A stretch of DNA of 64,000 nucleotides from Candidatus Bathyarchaeota archaeon (GTDB taxonomy: Archaea > Thermoproteota > Bathyarchaeia > Bathyarchaeales > Bathycorpusculaceae): assembly GCA_963715865.1 (NCBI GenBank), contig OY970280.1, positions 1,600,001-1,664,000 of the forward strand, written 5' to 3'. Shown here in pieces: positions 19,540 through 51,133 of the stretch (within the stretch, counting starts at the first letter, position 1; every line of letters starts with the position of its first letter). The position numbers and the translations under genes are program-made. A model generated the notes under the pieces. The model worked only from the letters and a program-made list of their open reading frames with translations. It did not search any database and had not been told where the DNA came from.

Positions 19540-19578
19540 AAAAAGACAATGAGGGATTGGTGACATCTTAGAGCATTA

Positions 19579-19683
19579 GGGTTTGCTGAGGCTCTGGAAC
19601 ATTTTTTAAGGAGAAAAGAAAAATGCAAATGCTTGACTATGACCTATTGCTTTTCGTGAATTTAACCAGAGCCTTCTCAGCCC
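19579..19683 (-). repeat. Bulged inverted-repeat element, copy 1
   Basis: Plus-strand arms GGGTTTGCTGAGGCTCTGG (19579-19597) and CCAGAGCCTTCTCAGCCC (19666-19683). Confidence 0.9.
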
Positions 19684-19714
19684 TTATTCTCTTCTCCAAT
19701 GCGTTTTTAAGACT

Positions 19715-19728
19715 AAAAAAGGGGGAAA
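19715..19728 (-). terminator. Pyrimidine/T-tract terminator-like motif after beta-propeller gene 1
   Basis: Minus strand TTTCCCCCTTTTTT about 25 bp after the stop; equivalent tracts at ~22672-22684 and ~51048-51062. Confidence 0.55.
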
Positions 19729-19751
19729 GTGATTTTTTTGTTTGCGAGTCG

Positions 19752-22226
19752 TTATGGCCGCTTCTTGAGCCATCAACATTAGCACGACAGCAATAGACTA
19801 TGATGATTATAGCGACTAGTGCCGGCGACGCAGGAACAAAGTACAGTTGGCGACAGAAGTACGGTGTAGATATGGTGATGCTGTTGGCGCTGGAGAACTG
19901 GCATAGAAATGTGTTTCGGCATTAGATCCATAGTATGACTGTGAACCTGCAAAGGTAGCGATGACAGTGTAATTGCCTGGAATGTCAGGCGTCCAAGTGG
20001 AAGCGAACGTTCCGCTGGAATCAGTTGTAGTAGTGCCGATTTGTCTGTTGTTGCCGTTAGAGTCGATAACGCTGAGTGTAACTGGAACACCAGTCACGTT
20101 TGTTGGCATTGGCTTCTGCATGTAAACGTACTCCATCCACTGACTCATGCTTGCATCAGATACGCTGGTAGACCGTTGGGAAATTCCGCTGATAGTTGTT
20201 GTTGATTGCCAGGAGATTTATCCAATACTGTGCCCGTTATAGTCACAGGTGTGGAAGTTGTCACGCCAAGGTTGGGTGCGGTAACAGTGGTAGCGCTTGG
20301 TCCCATGCCAAAGCAGTACTGGCGACCGTCATAATAGTTGGTGGCTATGAGGAGGCCGTCCGCTATAATTGGTTGCATATCATAGTTAGGTGACCAAAAC
20401 GCTATATTCCATATGGTCGCTCCTGTTGTTGCGTTGAGGCACCAGAGCTGGTCCCCCTGATAATAAGGAGGAGCCTCACTGTGCTCATTGTTGGAAGCGT
20501 AGACTTTGCCGTTGGCAACCATGATTTGCGAGAAGAAAGTTTCCCAACCGTATGGAGTCTCATAGCCGACGGGATTGTAGCCTCCCTTCCATTCTATTGC
20601 CCCTGTCGTAGCGTTAATTGCCCAGACGTATCCGGTGTAGGTCGGGTAGTAGACCATGCCGTAAGCTGCAGCTTTGGAGTAACTCCAGAAACTTCCCCAA
20701 GGATATGTGGTGACAGTGTCATTGAACAGAACAGCTCCGGTTAACAAATCTATCCCCGCTAATGGCCTCAATCCGTTGTTATTAGGATCCCCATTAAGCA
20801 GAGCATAGACGTACGTTCCTTCTTGTGTAATAACACCGCTGAGTGAGCTAAATGATCTTTCCGCAATGGTAAAATTATTGGTCCACAGTATTTGCCCTGT
20901 ATCAGTGTCAAAAGATCCAGAGGGAACAATGGGGGTTTCTAATATCGTCGTAGCTGCCCCGACGCCGAAATAAAACCCTACATTATTCCATATCCCAGTG
21001 ATGCCATTGAGCGGATAGGTTACGTTGTATACAATCCTGCTTGTGAAGTTGGCGCTGATACCGGATGCGTTCCATTTGATCAAATAATTCTGAGCAGTAG
21101 CACCACTTCCTATCGTCTGCACGCTGTAGACGTAGGGGGCAACGAAGGTACCCGACATGCCAGGCACATCGCAAATCAAAGTTCCCGTGTATGCACTCCA
21201 CTTTTGGAGCCTCGAGCCAATATTCATCAAATACGCATTGTAGGAATCGGTTGGGGAGCCAAAGCCAATTGTAACGTACTCTTCAGATGTAGCGACGGAC
21301 AAAGTAATGTTTTGATTAACCCATAGTTGTTGTCCAGTACGTAAGTCTATGCAATGGACCCCGTCAGGTGCACTGTAATAACCTAATCCGGCAATGGCGA
21401 TGGTTATAGTGTAGATAACGCTCGTGTACTGGTATCCTAGGACAAGTACTCCACCCTGGTAAGTAGCATCGCTCACGGGAACGCCACTGTATATACTGTC
21501 GTTATATGCCCCTCCGACCATGCCGCCTAAGCCCGATGTCCTCGCCCATAGTATGTGGGCAGAGTTTGGCGCTTGACCATATGGCTGATAGAAATCCCCG
21601 GTGCTATCGTAACCGACCTGACACCAGTCTCCCAAAAGCTGGCTCCATTCTCTGTTCTCGACTGAGATTGGGGTCTGCCAGTAAGCGGTTGGAAGTGGAG
21701 TTGGCTGGTAACCAGGAACCTGCGCCTCTGTTACGTTAAGATGCGTTATTGGGCTTTCGGAGCCCGTATAGTTAACTGCGTATGTTGTTTGAAATGCATA
21801 TGGATAGGGTGGTTTGGGTGATTTGTATGGGGTTCCTACCGGAAAGTAGTCTCCAGCGTAAAAGAACTGCAATGTCCAATTGCCAACAGCATCGGGCACG
21901 AAATTAAACCATGCCGAGCCATCTGCCTGTACCGTTGTCAACGGCCCAATTGTTTGAACGGTTCCGTCGGGATGTGTGATTTTAACAGTATAGCCAGTCC
22001 GAGGAACACCTGCCCAGTCCACAGGGGGTGTCACCCAAATGTTAACCAAGAGGCTCTGATTGACCCCTATAGGGTTAGGACTACAAGCAAGGTAGGCAAT
22101 GGTTGGTACGGTTTCGGCATGACCTTGCGCGTTAGCACTTGGTATTAGCATCGTTGAAGCTGTCATTGAAAGCATCAAGAATATTGCAATCGAAATAGCC
22201 ATAGTTTTACTTTTTAGTTTTTGCAT
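19752..22226 (-). CDS. Secreted 'PQQ-like' beta-propeller surface protein 1 with C-terminal TM anchor and KKRP tail; 1-bp deletion at ~20163 and several indels at 19770-19870
   Basis: Signal peptide; repeated D..TG..LW blade ends; conserved GVPVTLSVIDSNGN/WTPDIPG module; paralog 2 has GATACTGCTGG where this copy has GATACGCTGG. Confidence 0.85.
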
Positions 22227-22289
22227 TTTTTTTTCTTTTCCTATAATTTTATGCAACAGATGTCGTTCAAAACTACTTATAAAGGGTCC

Positions 22290-22505
22290 CAGTAAGTCAA
22301 CCGACTACCAACTAACCGACAAAAAACAGAAAATTTTAAGAAAGCCAGCTGTGGAAGGCAAATATTTCCTAACCATCAAAATGTTGAAATGTACTGACGA
22401 AGACCAGGCCAAGCGGAATAAACTGGTCCCATAACGGCTTCCATTCTTTTAATATAGGGTATTTTTACGATTTCCTCATTAATTGCAATAACATCCTTAC
22501 AATCT
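22290..22505. repeat. 216-bp direct repeat A: 3' remnant of the Lrp gene plus promoter region of beta-propeller gene 1
   Basis: 8 mismatches by hand alignment to 25429-25644; encodes DCKDVIAINEEIVKIPYIKRMEA...RQYISTF*. Confidence 0.95.
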
Positions 22506-22526
22506 AAAATTGACTGTGAAGAAAGA

Positions 22527-22636
22527 GGGTTTGCTGAGGCTCTGGAACATTTCTTTTCTTTAGGAGAAAAAGAAAAATGCATAGCTTGCTAAAGGCTATT
22601 GTTTCTTGTAAATTCTAACCAGAGCCTTCTCAGCCC
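22527..22636 (-). repeat. Bulged inverted-repeat element, copy 2
   Basis: Both arms identical to copy 1; interior also similar. Confidence 0.9.
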
Positions 22637-22709
22637 TTCTCTCTTCTCCATTGCTTTTTAAGACTAAAACTAAAAAAGGGGAAAGTGATGTTTATGTTTG
22701 TCAACATTT

Positions 22710-25355
22710 TTATGGTCGCTTCCTAAGCATCAGCATAATCAAAGCGCCGACTATGGCTATTGCAATTATTATGGCGACTGTTGAAATGGCAAAGTATGTC
22801 TCTGTAGGTGGCAAATTAACTACTGGATATGGAGATGCTGTTGGCGGTGCTGCGCTTGCATAGAATGATGTGTCAGCGTGCGATGGATAGTATGACTCTG
22901 AACCAGCGAAGTTAGCGATGACAGTGAAGTCACCCGGTATGTCAGGTGTCCAAGTATAAGAGAACATGCCGTCTGCGTTACTTGTAGTGTTTCCGATTTG
23001 CCTATAGTTGCCGTTAGAGTCAAGAACACTAAGAGTAACAGGGACTCCGGTTGTGTTGGTTGGCATTGGCTGCTGCTCGTAAACTGCTTCCATGAATTGT
23101 GTTTGGCTTGCATCAGATACTGCTGGTAAACCGTTGGGGAAGTTTGCTGCAACTGCGTTTTGCTGTGAACCTGCAGAGATGTCGGTAACCGTTCCTTGAA
23201 TGACTATGGGTGATCCTACGGATGTAACAGGGTTAGGCGCTTCAACTGTTGTTTTGCTCGGTCCCATGCCGTAAGCGTATATCTGGTTGTCATAGGCATT
23301 GTCCCAAACCATAATGCCGTCAGCGACGGCGGGCCCATTGACTACGTTAAAGTTCAAAGTGCTCCAAATCAACTGTCCAGTGGTCGCGTTTAAGCAGTAT
23401 AGCTTGGCGCCTTTGTATACGGGCGCAGTGAAGTCGTGGCCTGACCGTATGTAAAGCTTTCCATCAGCAAGAATGTAACTCGTACCATAGGACCCCCCAA
23501 GGGGCTCCGTACCATAGGGAGTGTCGACCCCGCTGCTTCCAGCGTTCCAGCTCCAAATTAGAGCGCCTGTTTGGACATCATAGCAGTACACCTCTCCGCT
23601 GAAGCCCGGAAAGCTGTAAAAGTTGCCGTAGCCTATAACCCCCTTATAAGTAGCGCCAGCTTGGTCGCCATTGTAGTATCCCAAAGAACTGTTGCAGCCC
23701 TTAATTGGACCCCACAGCTTCTCTCCCGTCTTGAGGCTGTATCCACTCCAAGTCATCGACTGCTGTGCGTATTCAGTGTACACTCCTTCGCCCACAGGAC
23801 CCAGAACTACGTTGGTAAATGGTGTTAGCGTTCGGTTTACTGGACCCCACAGCAGATGCCCGTTAGTTTCGCTGTAACCTGCGTCAATTCGATAGCCCAC
23901 TTGAGATCCGCCTGGAGGCCCAACAGAAAATGCCCCTCCGCCTCCCATTGCAGCAGTAAGTATTACACCGTCGCTAATCCATAAAGTTGAAAGTATATCC
24001 TCTGATTGTATGGGTACGCCTGAAATGTTAGTGACTATGGGTACGCGCCATTCGTATCCACCGTTCCAGTCAATAGTACTTCCTTGAGGAGGCCGCCAAA
24101 TTTCCGCAGCAGAATAAACACTATACTTATTAATCGCCTGAGAGGCCACTGCGATACATTTGCTAGCGTTCCACAGACTCAACTGACCTCCGGATACCTT
24201 GTAGCTTAGCAGTTCACCGTTTGAACCCTCCACGAGCGTGCCCTCACTTACGTTGGCAATGTTCAGTATCCACTGTCCAGTCATAGCGTCATACATTGAC
24301 CACGTCGTAGGCGCTATGGGATTCGCTACCAATCCCTCTGACCCCCCCGTAAATAGGTACGAGTGGGCTCCGTACTGGTCTCCTGTTATGAAATTGTATA
24401 TCATACCGCATCTCAGCGTGGTATTAGCGTTCACAGTCCATAGCGTCTGTCCAGTCCGTAGATCTACAGCGGTCAGAGGTCCGAAGTTGTTTCCAGCCCC
24501 TGGGTATTCAGTGTAGTAAAGTATACCGCATATGATCACTGGATTCAATTGGGGTTGGTGCATCGTTCCCGATGCGAAGACGCTTGATGAATCGGAGCCG
24601 AATTCTCCTCCGATTTGGCCCCCGAAAGCTAGCGGCTTTGTCCACATGATGTGAGCGGTGGTTGGCGCGGTGGTGTACGGATCAAAGTTTCCAGTCTGAT
24701 CGTACACTCCAGAGGAGCCATGCGATGTTTTGGCAAGTCCGAGCCAGTTTCCGCCGATCGAATACCAATCTCTGTTCATTGAATTTATTGGGCGTGTCCA
24801 GTATCCCGTTGGAAGCGGAGACGGCGGGTAGGCGGTTGTTATCTGCGCCTGTTGCACGGTGAGTGTCACTAAGTTGCTGGTACTGGCTTCAAAAGTATCG
24901 TTAATATAGTTCAAACCAGAAGGACTAATTAAGGGATAGGGGTAGGGATTCTCGTTAGTTGGGGTTTGTTGAGGAAAGTGACCAACAAAAGTGTATTCGC
25001 CGACTTCTGTAGGCACGTATGTGCACCCTATCACTCCTCCTGTAGCGTCGGAACTGAACGGTCCTAAGGTTGTGGTTGTTCCGCCGGGCGTTGTGACTGC
25101 CACTGTCATATTATGCCATCTATAACCCCAATCGCTATACGCGCTTGGCGGAGCCTTATCAATCCAGAAGCTAACGTAGACGGATTGACTGACTCCTGCT
25201 GGGTTAGGTGCAAGTGTAATGAAAGCGTAGGTGGGAATAGTCCATGGAGGCGTATGCGCACTAGCAGTTGGTACTAGCATCATTGAAGCTGCCATTGAAA
25301 TTGTCATGAGTATAGCAATTGTAATAGCTGCAATTTTATTTTTGAGTTTTTTCAT
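22710..25355 (-). CDS. Secreted 'PQQ-like' beta-propeller surface protein 2 (881 aa) with C-terminal TM anchor and RKRP tail
   Basis: Signal peptide ending ASA; propeller blade motifs; PT-rich linker; hydrophobic helix then basic tail. Confidence 0.9.
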   Translation of the reverse strand: MKKLKNKIAAITIAILMTISMAASMMLVPTASAHTPPWTIPTYAFITLAPNPAGVSQSVYVSFWIDKAPPSAYSDWGYRWHNMTVAVTTPGGTTTTLGPFSSDATGGVIGCTYVPTEVGEYTFVGHFPQQTPTNENPYPYPLISPSGLNYINDTFEASTSNLVTLTVQQAQITTAYPPSPLPTGYWTRPINSMNRDWYSIGGNWLGLAKTSHGSSGVYDQTGNFDPYTTAPTTAHIMWTKPLAFGGQIGGEFGSDSSSVFASGTMHQPQLNPVIICGILYYTEYPGAGNNFGPLTAVDLRTGQTLWTVNANTTLRCGMIYNFITGDQYGAHSYLFTGGSEGLVANPIAPTTWSMYDAMTGQWILNIANVSEGTLVEGSNGELLSYKVSGGQLSLWNASKCIAVASQAINKYSVYSAAEIWRPPQGSTIDWNGGYEWRVPIVTNISGVPIQSEDILSTLWISDGVILTAAMGGGGAFSVGPPGGSQVGYRIDAGYSETNGHLLWGPVNRTLTPFTNVVLGPVGEGVYTEYAQQSMTWSGYSLKTGEKLWGPIKGCNSSLGYYNGDQAGATYKGVIGYGNFYSFPGFSGEVYCYDVQTGALIWSWNAGSSGVDTPYGTEPLGGSYGTSYILADGKLYIRSGHDFTAPVYKGAKLYCLNATTGQLIWSTLNFNVVNGPAVADGIMVWDNAYDNQIYAYGMGPSKTTVEAPNPVTSVGSPIVIQGTVTDISAGSQQNAVAANFPNGLPAVSDASQTQFMEAVYEQQPMPTNTTGVPVTLSVLDSNGNYRQIGNTTSNADGMFSYTWTPDIPGDFTVIANFAGSESYYPSHADTSFYASAAPPTASPYPVVNLPPTETYFAISTVAIIIAIAIVGALIMLMLRKRP

Positions 25356-25428
25356 GTATTTTTCTTTCCTTTAATTTTAGAGCGAAATCGCTCAAAGGTA
25401 CATTGCTCGAAATGCTTTTAAAATGTCA

Positions 25429-25644
25429 CAGTAAGTCATCCGACTACCAACTAACCGACAAGAAACAGAAAATTTTAGGAAAGTCAGCTGTGGAAGGCAA
25501 ATATTTCCTAACCATCAAAATGTTGAAATGTACTGACGAAGACCAGGCCAAGCGGAATAAACTTGTCTCATAGCTGCTTCCATTCTTTTAATATAGGGTA
25601 TTTTTACGATTTCCTCATTAATTGCAATAACATCCTTACAATCT
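25429..25644. repeat. 216-bp direct repeat B: Lrp 3' end plus promoter region of beta-propeller gene 2
   Basis: About 96% identical to 22290-22505; contains periodic CCGACTA-CCAACTA-ACCGACA upstream of the TATA-like element. Confidence 0.95.
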
Positions 25645-50930: not shown

Positions 50931-51013
50931 GAGGTCTGCTGAATCTCAGAGATTATAAGAGAAAAATGCTTAGAATAGGATTAAACGTTTTTTATCCAGA
51001 GCCTTCTCAGCCC
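50931..51013 (-). repeat. Bulged inverted-repeat element, copy 3 (distal arm degenerate)
   Basis: Exact CCAGAGCCTTCTCAGCCC at 50996-51013; GAGGTCTGCTGAATCTCAGA at 50931-50950; shared AGAAAAATGC interior. Confidence 0.8.
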
Positions 51014-51133
51014 ATCGATTTTTATTATTAATTATTTAATAACAAAATAAAAAGAGGGAAAGAATATGCTTCCTGTGTTGGTGTCGTAGTTGGCTCGGTC
51101 TATTGCCGATTGTTTCGCCTCATAGAATCAAAC

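Follow-up and report, generated by a model that had tools for sequence, protein, structure and literature searches.

A bulge-helix-bulge element behind surface-protein genes of Bathyarchaeia: candidate excised RNAs antisense to the translation starts of sister genes

A 64,000-nt window of a 2.35-Mb single-contig Bathyarchaeia genome (G000, C1:1600001-1664000) contains copies of an intergenic element that we read as the source of a small RNA excised by the tRNA-splicing endonuclease EndA, probably circular, and directed against ribosome binding sites (RBS). Relatives of its LarA protein, 77-97% identical, come nearly all from MAGs labeled Bathyarchaeia or Bathyarchaeota, and on this basis the archaeon is assigned to the Bathy-6 type known from peat, soil and wetland. 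Judging from comparison of the copies, we put the probability of this reading at about 0.55. The closing stem of the element is a canonical 3-4-3 bulge-helix-bulge (BHB). Its interior is, by sequence complementarity, antisense to the Shine-Dalgarno (SD) sequence and start codon of sister genes belonging to one family of surface proteins, and most copies stand directly behind genes of that same family.

Copies, host genes and distribution

The original prediction described three sites sharing an exact 18-mer. Indeed, CCAGAGCCTTCTCAGCCC was recovered at positions 19666, 22619 and 50996 of the window (plus strand), with 0.03 matches expected from shuffled sequences. The bulged inverted repeat, the T-tract and the upstream gene 3' end that had been reported with it were all found at the copies (Table 1). 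Copy 3 has an intact 5' arm, folds poorly and sits behind a decayed gene remnant; as its 3' arm is degenerate, like its interior, we consider it a decayed element. A search across the window returned no tRNAs. The placement of copy 2 near a duplication breakpoint was also borne out, since a 235-nt direct repeat (22271-22505 and 25410-25644, 94% identical), which forms the control block upstream of each of the two family genes, ends 22 nt from this copy. A weaker repeat (19869-20163 and 22826-23120, 75%) corresponds to the C-terminal modules of these genes, which are homologous.

Table 1. Location of the element copies, their parts and their host genes in the window.
Feature	Position	Strand	Description
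Copy 1 of the element	19578..19684	-	107 nt; covariance-model match 107.2 bits
Copy 1, 5' BHB half	19666..19684	-	outer AGG, central GCUG, bulge AGA (19677-19675), inner AGGCUCUGG
Copy 1, 3' BHB half	19578..19593	-	inner CCAGAGCCU (upper end approximate), central CAGC, bulge AAA (19584-19582), outer CCC
Copy 1 antisense segment (...GCAUUUGCAUUUUUCUUUUCUCCUUAA...)	19604..19634	-	complementary to SD and AUG of family genes
Predicted EndA cuts, copy 1	between 19676 and 19675 and between 19583 and 19582	-	would excise 93 nt
CCCCC-T6 tract, terminator-like, between host stop codon and copy 1	19715..19729	-	
Copy 1 host, disrupted family gene	19752..22226	-	PQQ_2 beta-propeller; ORF from ATG at 22226, broken near 20145
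Copy 2 of the element	22526..22637	-	112 nt; covariance-model match 96.3 bits
Copy 2 antisense segment	22559..22581	-	plus strand reads TTTAGGAGAAAAAGAAAAATGCA
Predicted EndA cuts, copy 2	between 22629 and 22628 and between 22531 and 22530	-	would excise 98 nt
CCCC-T6 tract preceding copy 2	22672..22685	-	
Copy 2 host	22710..25355	-	intact, 881 aa; signal peptide MKKLKNK..., PQQ_2 propeller, membrane anchor and LRKRP
Copy 3 of the element	50931..51014	-	38.1 bits, third-lowest of 103 covariance-model matches

The element is not confined to three copies, as had first been thought. A genome-wide search for the 18-mer, a check proposed with the original prediction, led to 15 copies in this genome (11 of them exact), and hundreds exist across the order. 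When the 15 copies were aligned in the orientation of the neighboring gene, they formed one conserved unit consisting of a hydrophobic coding tail ending in ...L(R/K)KRP-stop, a CCCC-T6 tract, a purine-rich box and the inverted-repeat element. Conservation drops sharply after CAGCAAACC.

The hosts had been described as accessory genes in general, and they proved to be members of a single surface-protein family, the very family to which the element interior is antisense. These proteins of 850-950 aa combine a signal peptide (MQ/K..K.K..AI.IAI...SM.AS..LVP.A.AHTP), a BamB/PQQ-type beta-propeller and a C-terminal membrane anchor followed by RKRP. G000 encodes at least 12 members of the family. 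Within the genus, four further genomes have 25-34 and a fifth has 11; the counts in a second taxonomic family (f7) are 15-19. Among 97 distinct copies, 70 (~72%) lie 47-77 nt past the stop codon of a long same-strand ORF with a membrane anchor and an RKRP-like tail, and about 25% are orphans outside this usual context. A CCC-T(5-8) tract is found 21-34 nt ahead of nearly all host-linked copies. In one complete genome (G040), the element stands behind 14 of 15 family genes. The gene at G040:C1:468013 is the only one of them found with no element behind it, and the G040 element at 935716-935825 (behind gene 938001) contains a 22-nt perfect antisense stretch to this gene.

The host of copy 1 is disrupted. 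Its frame breaks near 20145, leaving a truncated 703-aa ORF and, detached from it, a C-terminal anchor (...LKKRP) with its stop codon at 19752-19754 (ORF and anchor together within 19752-22256), and it is either a pseudogene or the product of an assembly frameshift. In many lineages (G006, genus g16; e.g. L223, L235, L053) the T-tract forms the loop of a hairpin, such as CTCCC-T7-GGGAG or TTTCCC-T7-GGGAAA, a layout that is unusual for a terminator.

Of 24 genomes of the genus with BLAST matches examined, 20 contained the element, its copies frequently arrayed ~3 kb apart. Many of these matches spanned the element alone, indicating that it has discrete boundaries. A covariance model retrieved it from 50 of 61 genus genomes, with ~450 matches and up to 27 copies per genome. 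At the level of the order it was present in 30 of 121 sampled genomes, concentrated in two families, f1 (13/25) and f7 (15/25); in genus g16 of f7, 15 of the 16 genomes sampled possess it. One f7 genome (G109) has a further BHB-armed element whose interior differs from that of the first (L238:1655-1753, L248:1372-1468, L228:1660-1758), located ~35-40 nt after it and resulting in tandem pairs at some loci.

The closing stem, its strand and the splicing machinery

A BHB is defined as a 4-bp helix flanked by two 3-nt bulges (PMC7714728). RNAalifold analysis of 38 copies gave an outer helix GG(N)/(N)CC, a 3'-strand bulge AAA, a central helix GCUG/CAGC, a 5'-strand bulge AGA and an inner helix AGGCUCUGG/CCAGAGCCU. 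The motif can thus be written GG-GCUG-AGA-AGGCUCUGG ... CCAGAGCCU-CAGC-AAA-CC, with two 3-nt bulges on opposite strands, 4 bp between them and flanking helices on both sides. The inner helix comprises 9 bp, 8 of which covary. For the outer helix (3 bp), pairing reaches 88% in f1 and 97% in f7 and includes both A:U and U:A replacements; its register is partly ambiguous because of a run of G. Variants of the central helix are compensated (GCCG/CGGC in L085, ACUG/CAGU in L102), and the bulges are conserved, as AAA in 90 of 97 copies on one side and as A-R-W (AGA, AGT, AAA or AAT) in about 95-96 of 97 on the other.

The structure alignments were fitted to the covariance model. When the 97 distinct copies were aligned to it, 95% of the cells were paired, versus 86% in shuffles, and double changes were observed at 13 of the 16 pairs. 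Compensatory cells numbered 156, versus 53 in shuffles, and none of 500 shuffles reached 156, although these statistics overstate independence because the copies are related. Controls in which the register was slid had only 25-58% of cells paired. The 33 distinct copies of f7, taken separately, had 92.6% of cells paired and double changes at 10 of 16 pairs. The construction of such a model across Bathyarchaeia had been suggested together with the original prediction, and its outcome is a closing stem that covaries strongly, with bulges conserved in two families.

The pairing register is settled by one pair of alignment columns. Column 11 is the base that follows the 5' bulge, and column 158 is the U or C bordering CAGC on its 5' side. 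Columns 11 and 158 form AU in 54 copies, GC in 30 and GU in 9, with 4 other combinations. The CUGA/UCAG register proposed earlier, in which the invariant A of CUGA would pair with column 158, leaves 33 copies unpaired and 64 paired (64/97 versus 93/97) and was rejected. Since pair 11:158 covaries, the stem is a canonical 3-4-3 BHB and not a 3-4-4 variant. The earlier description was right as to the bulge-helix-bulge and its polarity on the gene strand, and slightly off as to the register.

Inspection of the element revealed no k-turn and no C/D box motifs. In Rfam, the window had no match to any family at gathering score, C/D box sRNAs included, and permissive settings returned matches at chance level (best E = 0.35, 21 bits versus 50 needed). 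No description of such an element was found in the literature searched, in agreement with the initial remark that it belonged to no described family.

Two observations bear on the strand. On the gene strand, G:U exceeds A:C among the core pairs (43 versus 12); the four terminal pairs, which are the least reliable, show the reverse (9 versus 27). The second observation comes from a tRNA-Arg(CCG) intron of the same genome. On its 5' side, the outer helix UCGGC is followed by the central helix CUCC, the bulge GG/a (the slash marks the cut) and the inner helix; on its 3' side, the inner helix is followed by the central helix ggag, the bulge uu/A and the outer helix GCCGA. In this layout, both bulges are located on the 3' side of the 4-bp helix, each with respect to its own strand, and the cut follows the second bulge base. 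The element has the polarity of this intron on the gene strand only, the opposite strand having the reverse polarity. The sequence data thus favor the strand of the upstream gene (the minus strand of the window) as the functional one. The cut positions in Table 1 were inferred from the rule confirmed on this intron.

The genome encodes two EndA paralogs (PF01974, 100 and 80 bits; regions 742977-743219 and 1187424-1187678 of G000) and one RtcB (PF01139, 593 bits). The (alpha-beta)2 EndA of TACK archaea is known to tolerate BHB variants (PMC7714728), and circular rRNA intermediates of the EndA/RtcB type have been reported in Bathyarchaeia (PMC12918454). ARAGORN called 12 intron-containing tRNAs in G000, several of them with introns at non-canonical positions or of implausible length (up to 2 kb). 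Some of these calls are probably artefacts, and the set fits an alpha/beta EndA of broad specificity.

The interior and the start regions of the family

The middle of the element is variable and folds into different hairpins in different copies. The 3' part of the interior is conserved as ...UUUGCAU-N-CUUUUCUCCUUAA..., the opposite strand of which, AAGGAGAAAAGAAAAATGCAAA, contains an SD sequence, a spacer and a start codon. The pattern CAU-N(3-12)-anti-SD occurred in 91 of 129 interiors (12.5 expected from shuffled interiors), at a median of 13 nt ahead of the 3' arm, and in none on the other strand.

Outside the elements, the best genomic matches of the interiors fell almost entirely in the start regions of genes from the surface-protein family (MQI[AT]K[NS]KTAAIAIAIFL...). 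They reached 23-27 identical bases in G000, to be read against the fact that A-rich start regions make matches of 13-17 nt common. Ranked against 1188 control gene starts, the strongest predicted duplexes (ranks 0-10) were those with one class of family starts ("class I"), an example being the gene at 1449649. Starts of a second class ("class II", MKF/MKK), which include that of the copy 2 host at window position 25355, scored at background. The antisense segment of copy 1 matches the gene at G000 1449649 in its start region, over 26 of 27 nt, and its duplexes of -36.2, -34.8 and -30.4 kcal/mol ranked first against the 1188 control gene starts. The segment of copy 2 is identical over 23/23 nt to the start regions at G000 1108163 and 2323116, with duplexes of -33 to -37 kcal/mol with four paralogs versus -14.9 kcal/mol (rank 472) with its own host.

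In predicted circles, the anti-SD (CUCC) had an unpaired probability of 0.81, compared to 0.46 for the whole RNA, and this probability exceeded 0.5 in 87% of 82 circles folded in silico. The idea that AAUGGAGAAGAG, a purine box adjoining the element on its 5' side, might mask the antisense stretch in the precursor was abandoned, as native pairs were no better than permuted ones (p = 0.68).

Elements also follow the start-region variants of their own lineage. Family genes of two genomes (G040, G086) start with GAAGGTGAAAAAATGAAAAAAC or GAAGGAATGAAAAAATGAAA, and their elements contain the exact reverse complements; in a third genome (G155), AGGAGAAAAAATGAAAAA is used both in family starts and in elements. 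Across lineages, element and start region match over 21-40 nt, near-perfectly. In a best-of-5 alignment matrix, elements of G000 scored 31.7 against their own genome versus 19-24 against other genomes, those of G040 and G086 scored 32-39 versus 24-32, and those of G155 scored 41.8 versus 27-30. This diagonal emerged only after the second family was added. In the genus-only matrix it was highest or tied-highest in only 3 of 6 genomes, few starts being recovered and many genes using non-ATG codons; within the genus the test is weak because the start-region consensus is too uniform. The tracking could also be a product of gene conversion, with real 5' ends as donors, instead of selection for pairing. 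Family genes of other species (L108-L137; G006, G014, G049) often have apparently non-ATG starts, for example TTG after AAAGGAGAAAG.

The match of elements to their own hosts was also assayed. In G000, the own host was at background in 6 of 7 element-host pairs, a hint that elements might avoid it. This idea was dropped, as in the 14 pairs of G040 the own match averaged 10.8 nt, equal to the overall mean, with a mean rank of 8.0 (7.0 expected): the own host behaves as an average paralog. A few paralogs are hubs for antisense matches.

Proposed mechanism, alternatives and known systems

We propose the following pathway. The RNA module would be transcribed from the strand of the upstream gene, with RNA polymerase either reading through the T-tract or starting at a separate promoter; one or the other is required, because a T5-T8 tract separates the host stop codon from the element. 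No conserved promoter for the element was demonstrated. The two ends of the module would then pair into the BHB, and the alpha/beta EndA would cut each bulge behind its second base, releasing an RNA of ~85-115 nt. RtcB would ligate this RNA into a circle, with CAGCAA predicted to be joined to AAGGCUCUGG, and the flanks would be ligated at a predicted junction between GGGCUGAG and ACC. Both predicted junctions are defined exactly to the base. The excised RNA would display an unpaired stretch that is antisense to genes of the same family across their SD, spacer and start codon, and would therefore be expected to pair with a subset of paralog mRNAs; such pairing would block initiation of translation on them. 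Transcription, EndA cleavage, circularization and repression are all steps that we infer from the sequences. An EndA-excised small RNA was among the hypotheses of the original prediction, and it is favored by the covarying 3-4-3 BHB, its polarity, the G:U bias and the presence of EndA and RtcB.

Could the element be a structured RNA, located within the host 3' UTR or beyond it and left uncut by EndA, that serves for example mRNA stability, insulation of termination or protein binding? Its fixed position just past the T-tract would suit such a role, and strong covariation is expected of any functional hairpin. The resemblance to a BHB would then be coincidental, and the start-region-like interior a by-product of homology with the 5' ends of the family. 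However, two 3-nt bulges exactly 4 bp apart, with the right polarity and conserved in two families, would make a very specific coincidence, and both the CAU-spacer-anti-SD at its fixed place and the lineage tracking would be left without a role. We thus consider an uncut 3' element unlikely. A device acting in cis, in which pairing between the element and the start region of the mRNA carrying it would loop the message to tune translation or stability, appears highly improbable. Read-through would indeed place element and target-type sequence on one transcript, and in one G000 pair (host 1108181) the match between host and element is good, but the own host is at background in 6 of 7 G000 pairs and no better than a random paralog in the 14 G040 pairs.

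Other explanations dispense with the gene-strand RNA. A DNA-level element could be either MITE-like, with imperfect terminal inverted repeats, or an attC- or REP-like folded recombination site that shuffles surface-protein cassettes; a single-stranded DNA recombination site and a REP/MITE-like repeat had both been envisaged in the original prediction. Copies are numerous, end sharply with the inverted repeat, occur between tandem family genes and include ~25% of orphans, and the arms of an inverted repeat bound by a (dimeric) protein would covary as well. Nevertheless, target-site duplications are absent at orphan and host-linked copies alike, family genes devoid of the element show no empty-site scar, and distance and orientation are constant relative to one gene family. 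The bias of G:U over A:C in the core (43:12) also speaks for RNA. The nine tyrosine-recombinase matches in G000 are not systematically adjacent to elements, inspection of the arms revealed no attC core sites (RYYYAAC...GTTRRRY), and the flanking genes are paralogs with their own promoters rather than promoterless cassettes. Neither form of this explanation found support, and we regard it as quite unlikely. It is very unlikely that the opposite strand is the functional one, carrying, in convergent orientation to the host, either a real SD and start codon for a short ORF or a ribosome-loading site. GGAG-N(6-12)-ATG is conserved on that strand and a T5 run follows it in this genus, but the run is missing in other lineages. 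Moreover, the ORFs past the ATG span 4-57 codons and share neither frame nor sequence, that side has no conserved promoter and conservation ends sharply at the arm, G:U bias and BHB polarity point to the gene strand, and homology to family start regions fully explains the SD-ATG pattern. Finally, an invertible promoter, with the element and the downstream start region as inverted repeats, was considered and rejected: copy 2 does not match the start region of the gene directly behind it (-16.0 kcal/mol, rank 362), and many copies have no family gene downstream.

The proposed EndA-excised, anti-RBS RNA shares features with several known systems. Known BHB substrates of EndA include tRNA introns, the processing stems of 16S and 23S rRNA, the cbf5 mRNA intron of Crenarchaeota and the 5' UTR intron of Haloferax HVO_1309 (PMC7714728); outside tRNA and rRNA, the last two are the only documented ones (PMC7714728). 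The element resembles these substrates in its 4-bp helix, two 3-nt bulges, flanking helices and tRNA-intron polarity, and G000 encodes an EndA of the TACK-type alpha/beta form together with RtcB. Its predicted excised RNA of ~100 nt recalls the circular intron of tRNA-Trp, which also functions as a C/D box sRNA. In contrast to these substrates, it lies outside tRNA, rRNA, coding sequence or 5' leader, after the stop codon of a protein gene and a T-tract; it is multi-copy (10-27 per genome) and tied to one paralogous gene family; and its cargo is antisense to translation start regions. Its cleavage is a prediction.

In its stretch predicted to be accessible, complementary to targets at their SD and start codon, and in the expected block of translation initiation, the element is comparable to RBS-masking sRNAs, which include many bacterial sRNAs and, in Methanosarcina mazei, the trans-acting sRNA162 that masks the SD/AUG of its target (PMC3510493). 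It differs from them in its complementarity of 21-40 nt, near-perfect and aimed at paralogs of the gene in front, in its many sister copies per genome, and in a release predicted to occur via the tRNA-splicing pathway rather than through its own promoter and terminator or RNase E-type processing.

The location at the 3' end of a protein-coding gene is shared with sRNAs derived from bacterial 3' UTRs. CpxQ- and SroC-type sRNAs of bacteria are processed from mRNA 3' ends. Owing to this location, production of the archaeal RNA may be coupled to expression of the host gene. Unlike these sRNAs, the element is found downstream of a T-tract and not upstream of a terminator, and it is distinguished by its BHB processing signal, its archaeal lineage and its family-wide arrangement. 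As a short, multi-copy, intergenic and imperfect inverted repeat with conserved bulged bases, often between tandem genes, it also resembles MITEs, REP sequences and attC sites, from which it differs by the lack of target-site duplications, of a nearby transposase, RAYT or integrase and of attC core sites, by its fixed position and orientation relative to one gene family, and by RNA-type (G:U) substitutions. Altogether, these comparisons suggest that the novelty would reside in the combination of a BHB substrate with an anti-RBS sRNA, a combination that departs from documented substrates in location, copy number, linkage and cargo.

If the proposed reading is true, the element would represent a whole family of BHB substrates, with hundreds of members in two Bathyarchaeia families and a recognizable cargo. 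The splicing endonuclease would gain a role in making regulatory RNAs, and archaeal circular RNAs a new route of biogenesis. A more tentative extension, which we consider possible though doubtful, is a cross-silencing network in which each expressed surface-protein gene would release an EndA-cut, RtcB-circularized RNA antisense to a subset of its 15-35 sister genes. Such a network would result in hierarchical or mutually exclusive display of surface propellers, and would be an archaeal, post-transcriptional counterpart of antigenic or phase variation. Surface proteins of this repertoire make up several percent of these genomes; the element, if it acts as proposed, would offer a handle on how the repertoire is controlled in uncultured and globally abundant archaea of peat and sediment.
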